Shown: positions 28,152 through 29,033 of the stretch, one piece after another | Layout of the letters: every line of letters begins with the position of its first letter | Numbering within the stretch: position 1 is the stretch's first letter | DNA from: Flavobacteriales bacterium | GTDB lineage: Bacteria > Bacteroidota > Bacteroidia > Palsa-965 | Reading direction: 5' to 3' | Length of the DNA: 64,000 bases | NCBI GenBank assembly: GCA_040377305.1 | Contig: JBEIPA010000012.1 | Coordinates: forward strand, 27,653-91,652 | The notes under the pieces: model-generated | The model's database searches: none | Seen by the model: only the letters and a program-made list of their open reading frames with translations | Told to the model about the DNA's origin: nothing | Program-made: the position numbers and the translations under genes

Positions 28152-29033
28152 TTAAAGTGAATCGAAAGGCGAACGTATTTTCCCGATTGCATGGGCGCTT
28201 ACGTGGGTATAAATCTCTGTCGTTTTGCTGCTCGCATGCCCCAACAACTCCTGAATGTATCGAAGATCTGTTCCCGACTCCAGCAGATGAGTGGCAAAAC
28301 TGTGCCGTAACCAATGAAGTGTGACCGGTTTCGTAATTCCCGCTCGGGCAACACTTTGCTTCAGCACCTGCTGCAAACTCCGGGCATCGTAGGGTTGACC
28401 GCACTCTTGTCCTTCGAATAGATATTTTACAGGACGATACGATTTGAAATATTCACGCAACTGCTCGAGAATCTTTTCACTCAACGGAACAATTCTGTCC
28501 TTACGGCCTTTCCCATTCTTAATGATGACGAGCATGCGATTCGAATCAATATGCTCCGGCAAAAGACCGATCAATTCTCCACTGCGCAATCCGCAACTGT
28601 AAATGAGCGATAACATAGCTTTGTGCTTGGTATTTATTGTGCGTGTAAGCAGAAGCTTTACTTCTTCTTTACTCAGCACATTCGGTAGTGGCTTTCCGCG
28701 ACGCGGCCGATAGATCAATTCCGGATTCAGAATCTTATTGTGCAGAATCCGGAAGTACAACTTTATTGCGTTGATACATTGATTCTGAAAGGACACAGAC
28801 AATTCCTTCGCAATGATGTATTCCGAATTGAAACGCTGTACATCTGTGTTTGTAATCACAGAAACATCCTTGTCGCAAAAGGAAATAAATGTCCGTAAGC
28901 ATTCCGTGTAAACCTTTATCGTACCATTACTATAACGGCGCGACTTCAGCCAGTCACTGAACTGTTCCATAGATGGAGTGGGTGCTCCCCGTCCGACCGG
29001 CTCGTCCGGGCGGGCATAAGTGTTCTCTTTCAT
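28152..29033 (-). CDS. tyrosine recombinase, IntI-related in several segments but with XerC/D-like spacing (no IntI-specific insertion)
   Basis: 293 aa. Catalytic set: R (SCGLRSGEL), K (GKGRKDR), HWLRH, LLGH and Y (EIYTHV). Also carries [38 protein letters not shown] and the C-terminal IRSPFDSL. An alternative start is Met22 at 28970. Confidence 0.85.
   Translation of the reverse strand: [293 protein letters not shown]

Follow-up and report, generated by a model that had tools for sequence, protein, structure and literature searches.

A 64,000-nt stretch of DNA from a Flavobacteriales bacterium (assembly GCA_040377305.1, contig JBEIPA010000012.1, positions 27,653 to 91,652; hereafter the window) was analysed around a gene for a tyrosine recombinase that stands beside an array of short open reading frames (ORFs) and palindromic repeats. 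An earlier note, made from the letters of this DNA alone, had described the recombinase as resembling integron integrases (IntI) in several segments while lacking the insertion specific to them (I2), and had left two readings, a new lineage of cassette recombinase or an unrelated recombinase beside a fossil array. The three parts of the locus are listed below, with a slash marking the junction between the attI-like site and the array here and in later motifs.

28152..29033, minus strand: integrase gene, a 293-aa tyrosine recombinase of a Bacteroidota family without I2 (ORF and translation, Pfam, NCBIfam, alignments to Protein Data Bank (PDB) sequences, AlphaFold2 (AF2) model)
28059..28151, minus strand: attI-like region between the integrase stop codon and the first cassette junction; the minus strand reads ...GGGTTTATTTGCGCTACGATGTAGCGCAAATAAACTA/GTTATGCGTC
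17869..28058, minus strand: whole cassette array, about ten short co-oriented ORFs, nearly all without Pfam hits

The family of recombinases occurs together with an attI-like site and oriented arrays of attC-like hairpins, and the three make up a single conserved unit. Its layout is an integrase gene, then 93-107 nt containing a structured attI-like site that ends in A/GTT, then co-oriented cassettes, each made of an ORF and a palindrome.

A recombinase without the IntI-specific insertion

The translation of 28152..29033 on the minus strand is identical to the sequence quoted in the earlier note, and the full catalytic set read there is present (R150, K175/K178, H240, R243, H266 and Y275). In alignments of 17 and of 32 relatives, these residues show little or no variation. 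Pfam assigned Phage_integrase (1e-39) together with an N-terminal Phage_int_SAM_4. Scored against NCBIfam, the protein stayed below the cut-offs of both IntI models, TIGR02249 (212.2 bits, cut-off 265, with the match split in two stretches) and PRK15417 (133.8 bits, cut-off 435), so the insertion had not been overlooked in the alignment by eye. It also failed the equivalog models of XerD (196 bits, cut-off 330) and XerC (184 bits, cut-off 335). The sole NCBIfam model passed was NF040815, recomb_XerA_Arch ('site-specific tyrosine recombinase/integron integrase'), and this marginally (220.9 bits, cut-off 220).

The Xer-like spacing that had been proposed was confirmed by alignment and by modelling. 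VchIntIA (PDB 2a3v) aligns with the integrase in two pieces (query 27-196 with chain 11-181, query 219-291 with chain 246-318), and the interval of the insertion measures 22 residues in the integrase against 64 in VchIntIA, about 42 fewer. With a profile built from 32 family members, 15 profile positions face 57 residues of VchIntIA. The sequences of archaeal XerA (5hxy, 4a8e) align without a gap. In the AF2 model (mean predicted local distance difference test 79), residues 200-216 are predicted as a short beta-hairpin or loop and the extra helix is absent; the best structural matches of the model were XerA first and VchIntIA next. The I2 insertion is truly absent from the integrase.

The claim that three segments resemble IntI stood in part. 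The C-terminal tail (I-x-SPFD-x-L) aligns with IntI and not with Xer proteins, while the LPNVLS segment and the stretch containing LLGH are conserved equally in XerA and XerD. As had also been described, the 3' end of the gene points toward the array, and every cassette ORF lies on the same strand as the integrase.

Homologues number in the thousands (57-86% identity) and occur in Bacteroidota including Flavobacterium, Chitinophagales, Saprospiraceae, Pedobacter and Chryseobacterium; they are labelled 'site-specific tyrosine recombinase/integron integrase' by NCBI and 'XerD' by JGI. A library clustered at 50% identity contains 3087 representatives that match the integrase at E<=1e-30. The best 150 of these align in a single stretch over query positions ~21-293, with a protein span of matching length, so the missing I2 is a trait of the family and not a local deletion. 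These 150 are family members throughout, with no outgroup among them. A homologue search seeded with IntI1 gave only close IntI1 relatives (at least 74% identity).

At the N-terminus, most of the family carries an additional domain of 60-100 aa or more, for which Pfam gave no match and in which a conserved W-S-x-T...W..P motif was seen (P0016-P0120, P0241-P0390). Binding of the first palindromic attI box by this domain was considered and dropped, as one locus (L059) seems to lack the domain yet has the box. An integrase identical to that of the window, with the same first cassette ORF, was found in a second sequencing run, on a 1798-nt contig (L086, logan ERR9973207) that stops at about the first attC.

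The family also occurs on a plasmid: the 66-kb plasmid of Chryseobacterium sp. SNU WT5 (L084, NZ_CP041688.1, 14813-28800) carries a member together with attI and at least three strong attC sites. An IS110-family transposase and a group II intron interrupt its array. Classical attC sites are targeted by IS1111-attC and group IIC-attC elements, which these interruptions parallel.

The attI-like junction and the attC-like sites

In the window, the junction GTT of attI is the complement of 28059-28061, and a perfect 15-bp inverted repeat occupies 28064-28078 and 28082-28096. R'' of the first attC, attC_A, has an exact reverse complement in the box GTTATGCGT (complement of 28053-28061). Among the homologous loci with at least 125 nt downstream, to which the count is limited, an A/GTT junction lies 93-107 nt past the integrase stop in 61 of 71, across several orders. 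The site in these 61 loci is an imperfect palindrome of ~75 nt, with arms that vary between loci yet stay complementary, and it terminates in TATAnACnA/GTTnnnnGCAA; in the window and its close relatives L001 and L002, attI is shortened and its hairpin shows a compensatory change. A TAnnTTTG box (Bacteroidetes-type) stands between the stop codon and attI in 40 of the 61.

The attI-like site is linked to the first attC beyond it. Of 45 testable loci, 30 contain the exact reverse complement of the 9-mer starting at the GTT no more than 3.5 kb downstream, compared with 1 of 45 in the upstream control, and each downstream match opens an attC-like palindrome. Sequence similarity between related loci ends at the same place. 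Two Flavobacterium species (L011, L027) share 96% identity over the 400 nt ending at GTT and 57% (unrelated) beyond; a second pair (L032, L040) shares 91% up to GTT and 63% beyond. Contigs of 17 of the 80 genome loci (L004-L083) end 300 nt or less past the integrase stop, against 3 that end 300 nt or less before its start. Assemblies therefore appear to break at the attI junction, which fits repeated or variable sequence starting there.

attC-like sites were scanned for with the rule AAC, 1-3 nt spacer, at least 10 of 12 Watson-Crick pairs, 4-7 nt spacer, GTT; a setting of 8 of 12 pairs was too noisy for use. Downstream of the integrase (282 kb), 100 sites lie on the integrase strand and 18 on the other, while upstream (620 kb) the two strands hold 10 and 14. 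The enrichment downstream on the integrase strand is thus ~20-fold, and certain loci hold 9-10 sites inside 10 kb. The general form is nnnnnnAAC-A-[stem]...[stem]-RRRAC-GTTnnnnnn, an imperfect palindrome of 50-190 nt.

Consecutive sites are tied to each other by their ends. When the hexamer in front of AAC was compared with the hexamer that follows GTT of the preceding site, 42 of 64 neighbouring pairs were exact reverse complements. The same comparison gave 3 of 101 for opposite ends of a single attC and 1.5% for pairs taken at random. This complementarity is the diagnostic footprint of integron cassettes, and because of it the crossover is placed at the invariant triplet, finer placement than the triplet being impossible. 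Orienting the array from R-box complementarity alone was rejected, as the test is symmetric for both orientations; the orientation is based on the position of the attI half-site beside the integrase, on the direction of the ORFs and on the bias in folding.

In 83 of 100 sites, the R''-L'' arm has a 1-nt spacer and the L'-R' arm a spacer of 5 nt. This is not the classical attC geometry, since the extra bases are on the arm opposite to the classical R''-L''. Across the 86 distinct sites with 1/5 spacing, 86% of cells pair, compensatory double changes occupy 446 cells (131 +/- 9 in shuffles, with 0 of 500 reaching 446) and the covariation score is 0.657 (0.07-0.10 for slid registers). Stem positions past the 12 used for selection pair too, bar one conserved unpaired A. 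This nearly invariant A, 14 nt into the L stem (alignment A4, columns 24/29), is unpaired in 80 of the 86 sites and may be a recognition landmark.

The two strands differ in folding. The bottom strand is more stable in 84 of the 100 sites (mean difference in folding energy, ddG, -2.9 kcal/mol); folded as single-stranded DNA, attC_B of the window reaches -33.1 kcal/mol on the plus (bottom) strand and -22.1 kcal/mol on the top strand (z-scores -7.6 and -3.3). Mismatches in the stems of the same 100 sites show the same direction, with 171 G.T on the bottom strand and 58 on the top, an asymmetry that is not built in because the scanner scores both kinds of mismatch alike. A search of the attC sites against Rfam gave only sub-threshold microRNA-hairpin hits.

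The TAnnTTTG (-7) box recurs within attC-like sites: of 101 sites, 13 contain it on the cassette-sense strand and 2 on the opposite strand (27 and 8 with a relaxed motif); examples are at 26775-26800 of the window and in L007, L027 and L064. Judged from this motif, a promoter serving the following cassette may reside in some attC sites.

In the window array, the repeats between ORFs are imperfect palindromes of 78-124 nt (the attC copies), which on the ORF strand read nnnnnnAAC-A-GC[stem]...[stem]GC-AAAAC-GTTnnnnnn. They are, from the integrase outward:

27270..27393, minus strand: attC_A, 124 nt from AAC to GTT; closes cassette 1 (ORF 27410-28021)
26748..26825, minus strand: attC_B, 78 nt; closes cassette 2 (ORF 26824-27252)
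26205..26283, minus strand: attC_C; closes cassette 3 (ORF 26293-26736)
25619..25696, minus strand: attC_D; closes cassette 4 (ORF 25708-26190)
25121..25208, minus strand: attC_E; 5' (R''/L'') half degenerate, under ORF 25199-25687
24520..24607, minus strand: attC_F; 3' half degenerate, after ORF 24613-25113
24059..24134, minus strand: attC_G; weaker stem (8 of 12 pairs), after ORF 24156-24518
22938..23030, minus strand: attC_H; AAC of R'' mutated to AAT, after ORF 23023-23469
21793..21846, minus strand: truncated attC remnant, R'' and L'' only (GCCGCTAACAGCACAT), read by eye
17869..17956, minus strand: attC_I; most distal and most divergent repeat copy, weak folding

The chain of boxes from attI through attC_A, attC_B and attC_C to attC_D follows the reverse-complement rule, and the type of attC_A recurs nearly verbatim in Pedobacter and Flavobacterium loci (L081, L067). 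Since four consecutive attC sites are intact and the chain is unbroken from attI, the array is not obviously a fossil. The box of the truncated remnant is complementary to R' of attC_H and marks a break in the array after ORF 21847-22911. No attC sites were found in the window from 17957 to 21792, and attC_I is the probable end of the array. The G+C content is 0.34-0.43 in the array and 0.44-0.50 in its flanks.

Cassette ORFs across the family loci mostly encode small proteins without Pfam hits. In one locus (L002, 11310-19532), attI is directly followed by an 8-kb multi-gene unit with palindromes at its borders. The products of this apparent defence cassette are an SNF2/PLD helicase, an MmeI-like methyltransferase, SduA (Shedu) and a DprA-like protein.

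Comparison with known systems and weighing of the readings

On this sequence evidence, it is very probable that the protein is the resident integrase of an integron-like gene-capture platform, without I2 and co-oriented with its cassettes; the protein belongs to a large family found throughout Bacteroidota. The IntI cut-offs are missed and the homologues are linked to arrays, and the first of the two earlier readings, a new lineage of cassette recombinase, is therefore supported: the homologues did not turn out to be array-free when surveyed, and the attI-like junction, the co-oriented enrichment of attC and the cassette-end rule all speak for it. The second, an unrelated recombinase beside a fossil array, did not hold up against the attI counts and the intact proximal sites.

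The system shares much with classical integrons (IntI/attI/attC, as in class 1 and VchIntIA). In both, an integrase stands beside attI and an array of cassettes that consist of an ORF with its attC and no promoter; the attC sites are imperfect palindromes bounded by AAC...GTT, whose R'' is complementary to the box that follows the GTT before it; the bottom strand is the one that folds better, and conservation is of structure rather than of sequence. The cassette ORFs are mostly without known domains, copies occur on chromosomes and plasmids, and the SP(L/F)D C-terminal tail is common to both integrases. The differences lie first in the integrase, which here is without the ~40-aa I2 insertion (35-45 aa), scores below the cut-offs of the IntI hidden Markov models and is co-oriented with the cassettes, so that attI is found 3' of its gene. 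They extend to the sites: classical attC spacers are ~5/5 with extrahelical bases on the R''-L'' arm, while here one spacer has 1 nt and the other 5 nt, the R box is extended (GCnnnnAAC) and attI is a structured palindrome of ~75 nt. The hosts also differ, being Bacteroidota, a group reported to be almost devoid of integrons (IntegronFinder 2.0 preprint).

The integrases of inverted-integrase integrons are not known to lack the IntI-specific insertion or to be missed by the IntegronFinder profile intI_Cterm, which models the segment absent here. What those integrons (in Treponema denticola, Chlorobi and others; PMC4889954) have in common with the present system is an integrase transcribed in the direction of the cassettes. 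If an attC model detected its sites, the locus would be filed as a CALIN (attC clusters in which the integron integrase is missing), because its recombinase fails the IntI test; unlike in a CALIN, a conserved recombinase and an attI are physically and statistically tied to the array. The closest remark in the literature is that of Smyshlyaev et al. 2021 (PMC8138268), according to whom the insertion is 'not fully conserved' in an 'integron-like' subgroup. No description of such a system without I2 was found in the searchable full-text literature, subscription-only literature being outside the scope.

Several points weigh against the reading of the protein as an integron-like integrase. The I2 helix is held to be required for attC recombination (PMC7790495; PMC4889954). 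The integrase of the window and its closest relatives are without the N-terminal domain common to most of the family, about 10 of the 71 homologous loci are without the attI motif, and no exact TAnnTTTG box follows the integrase stop in the window. Part of the window array is decaying, with degenerate distal attC sites and none between 17.9 and 21.8 kb. The scanner rule behind the enrichment was derived from the same loci, with the other strand and the upstream flanks as controls rather than independent genomes.

Among the alternatives, the one that survives best accepts real cassette shuffling and has the palindromes recombined as duplex sites by a Xer-like two-strand mechanism. The pdif modules of Acinetobacter plasmids offer a parallel, as their genes too are bounded by sites of a Xer-type recombinase; unlike the sites here, pdif sites are dif-like 28-bp duplexes in alternating orientation and are not known to form hairpins or to have a dedicated adjacent integrase or attI. 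Such a mechanism would suit the absence of I2, the helix on which the extrahelical bases dock in IntI and which prevents exchange of the second strand (PMC7790495). It would also suit the attI-like site, in which a dif-like 11-7-11 palindrome was seen by eye and which shows no folding bias toward the bottom strand (21 of 61 loci), a lack of bias that is equally expected under the integron-like reading because attI would act double-stranded. The attC-like sites argue otherwise. Their excess of stable bottom strands and their mismatch asymmetry are not selectable in duplex DNA, their arms stand 50-190 nt apart around a variable centre with pairing conserved and sequence not, and the 1/5-nt asymmetry is meaningful in a folded strand only. 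We consider the duplex mechanism unlikely.

Less probable still, and very unlikely in our view, is a bystander origin, in which the recombinase would be a Xer-like housekeeping or mobile-element enzyme (acting at dif, partnering IS91 or serving as an island integrase) beside an old CALIN left by a lost canonical IntI. The likeness to XerA is considerable: XerA (5hxy, 4a8e) gives the best matches in sequence and fold, the archaeal XerA model is the only one passed, if marginally, and the spacing from the beta-hairpin lysine to HxxR is the same as in XerA and XerC-XerD. Xer proteins differ in acting at a single dif site of 28-30 bp without flanking cassette arrays, while the family here is linked to attI and arrays, has an IntI-type C-terminal tail and in most members the extra N-terminal domain. 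A bystander would leave unexplained a junction motif at a fixed distance in loci of several orders, the oriented enrichment of arrays and the fit of the first-cassette R'' to the integrase-proximal box; the XerC and XerD cut-offs are not reached, and no IS91-type transposase gene is listed in the three gene tables consulted (L001, L002 and L084). A role of the repeats as repetitive extragenic palindromic (REP)-like elements, terminators or structured RNAs, with the target of the recombinase elsewhere, is scarcely credible. The sites are indeed hairpins between ORFs with sub-threshold Rfam hits and promoter-like motifs in certain loops, but the cassette-end complementarity and the divergence exactly at GTT are signatures of recombination that REP elements or terminators do not explain.

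Under the preferred, integron-like reading, the integrase would exchange strands at the conserved AAC/GTT triplet, between double-stranded attI and a folded attC bottom strand or between two attC sites, and cassettes would be inserted, excised and reshuffled in the manner of classical integrons. Recognition must differ from the docking seen with VchIntIA, because I2 is absent and the unpaired bases are on the other arm; a folded site could not be recognised through an I2 helix and the docking of extrahelical bases. It would probably proceed through the R box (GCnnnnAAC/GTTnnnnGC), the L box (GCnnnTW) and an asymmetric bubble of 5 nt on the cleaved strand opposite 1 nt on the other. As a speculation, the bubble may also block second-strand exchange, as the central region would be missing on the uncleaved strand. 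Cassettes would probably be expressed by read-through from the integrase side, where most members have the TAnnTTTG box between stop codon and attI.

On balance we lean towards a wider proposal drawn from these features, that Bacteroidota may have a widespread integron class of their own, on chromosomes and plasmids, in which an integrase without I2 recombines folded single-stranded attC sites and the 5/1-nt bubble would replace I2 docking. The integrase would either have lost I2 or never have had it. The lineage could have reached this solution independently, or it could be a proto-integron intermediate between Xer and IntI that has survived.

Flanking elements and significance

An exact 21-nt repeat, TGAGCGTAGCCGAAGGGTGAC, flanks the block of integrase and array (15700-15720, 29168-29188 and also 29368-29388). 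It occurs nowhere else in the window, and none would be expected by chance. A perfect 22-nt palindrome (29148-29169) adjoins the right-hand copy; the repeats and the palindrome could be the boundaries of an island or a small dispersed repeat. Tandem 10-bp repeats, TTTGTAAACG, lie at 29093-29116, 60-83 nt upstream of the integrase start, and are kept upstream of the closest homologues. Copies are at 9913-9956 and 11150-11203 of L001 and at 458-497 of L003, and in L001 the repeats are found within an ORF-less first cassette as well. They are candidate operator or promoter elements.

Directly upstream of the integrase region, 29450-35998 encodes a repetitive protein of 2182 aa with a putative sorting signal of the type IX secretion system (T9SS) at its end, read by eye. 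A 91-nt tRNA-Ile called by ARAGORN inside this ORF (33568-33658) is probably false.

Integrons are defined, and searched for computationally, by an integrase containing I2, which is regarded as the innovation that enabled recombination of single-stranded attC (PMC7790495; PMC4889954). If the integron-like reading is true, a large family without I2 that is tied to cassette arrays would overturn this definition; I2 would not be a prerequisite for cassette recombination at hairpin sites, and the lineage would be invisible to searches of the IntegronFinder type. This would explain the reported near-absence of integrons in Bacteroidota and would enlarge the known pool of mobile genes by thousands of cassette arrays so far unrecognised, defence-gene cassettes among them. 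For engineering, it would offer a second, orthogonal system of structure-specific recombination. For evolution, the family would be a natural test case for how Xer-type enzymes come to act on folded DNA.

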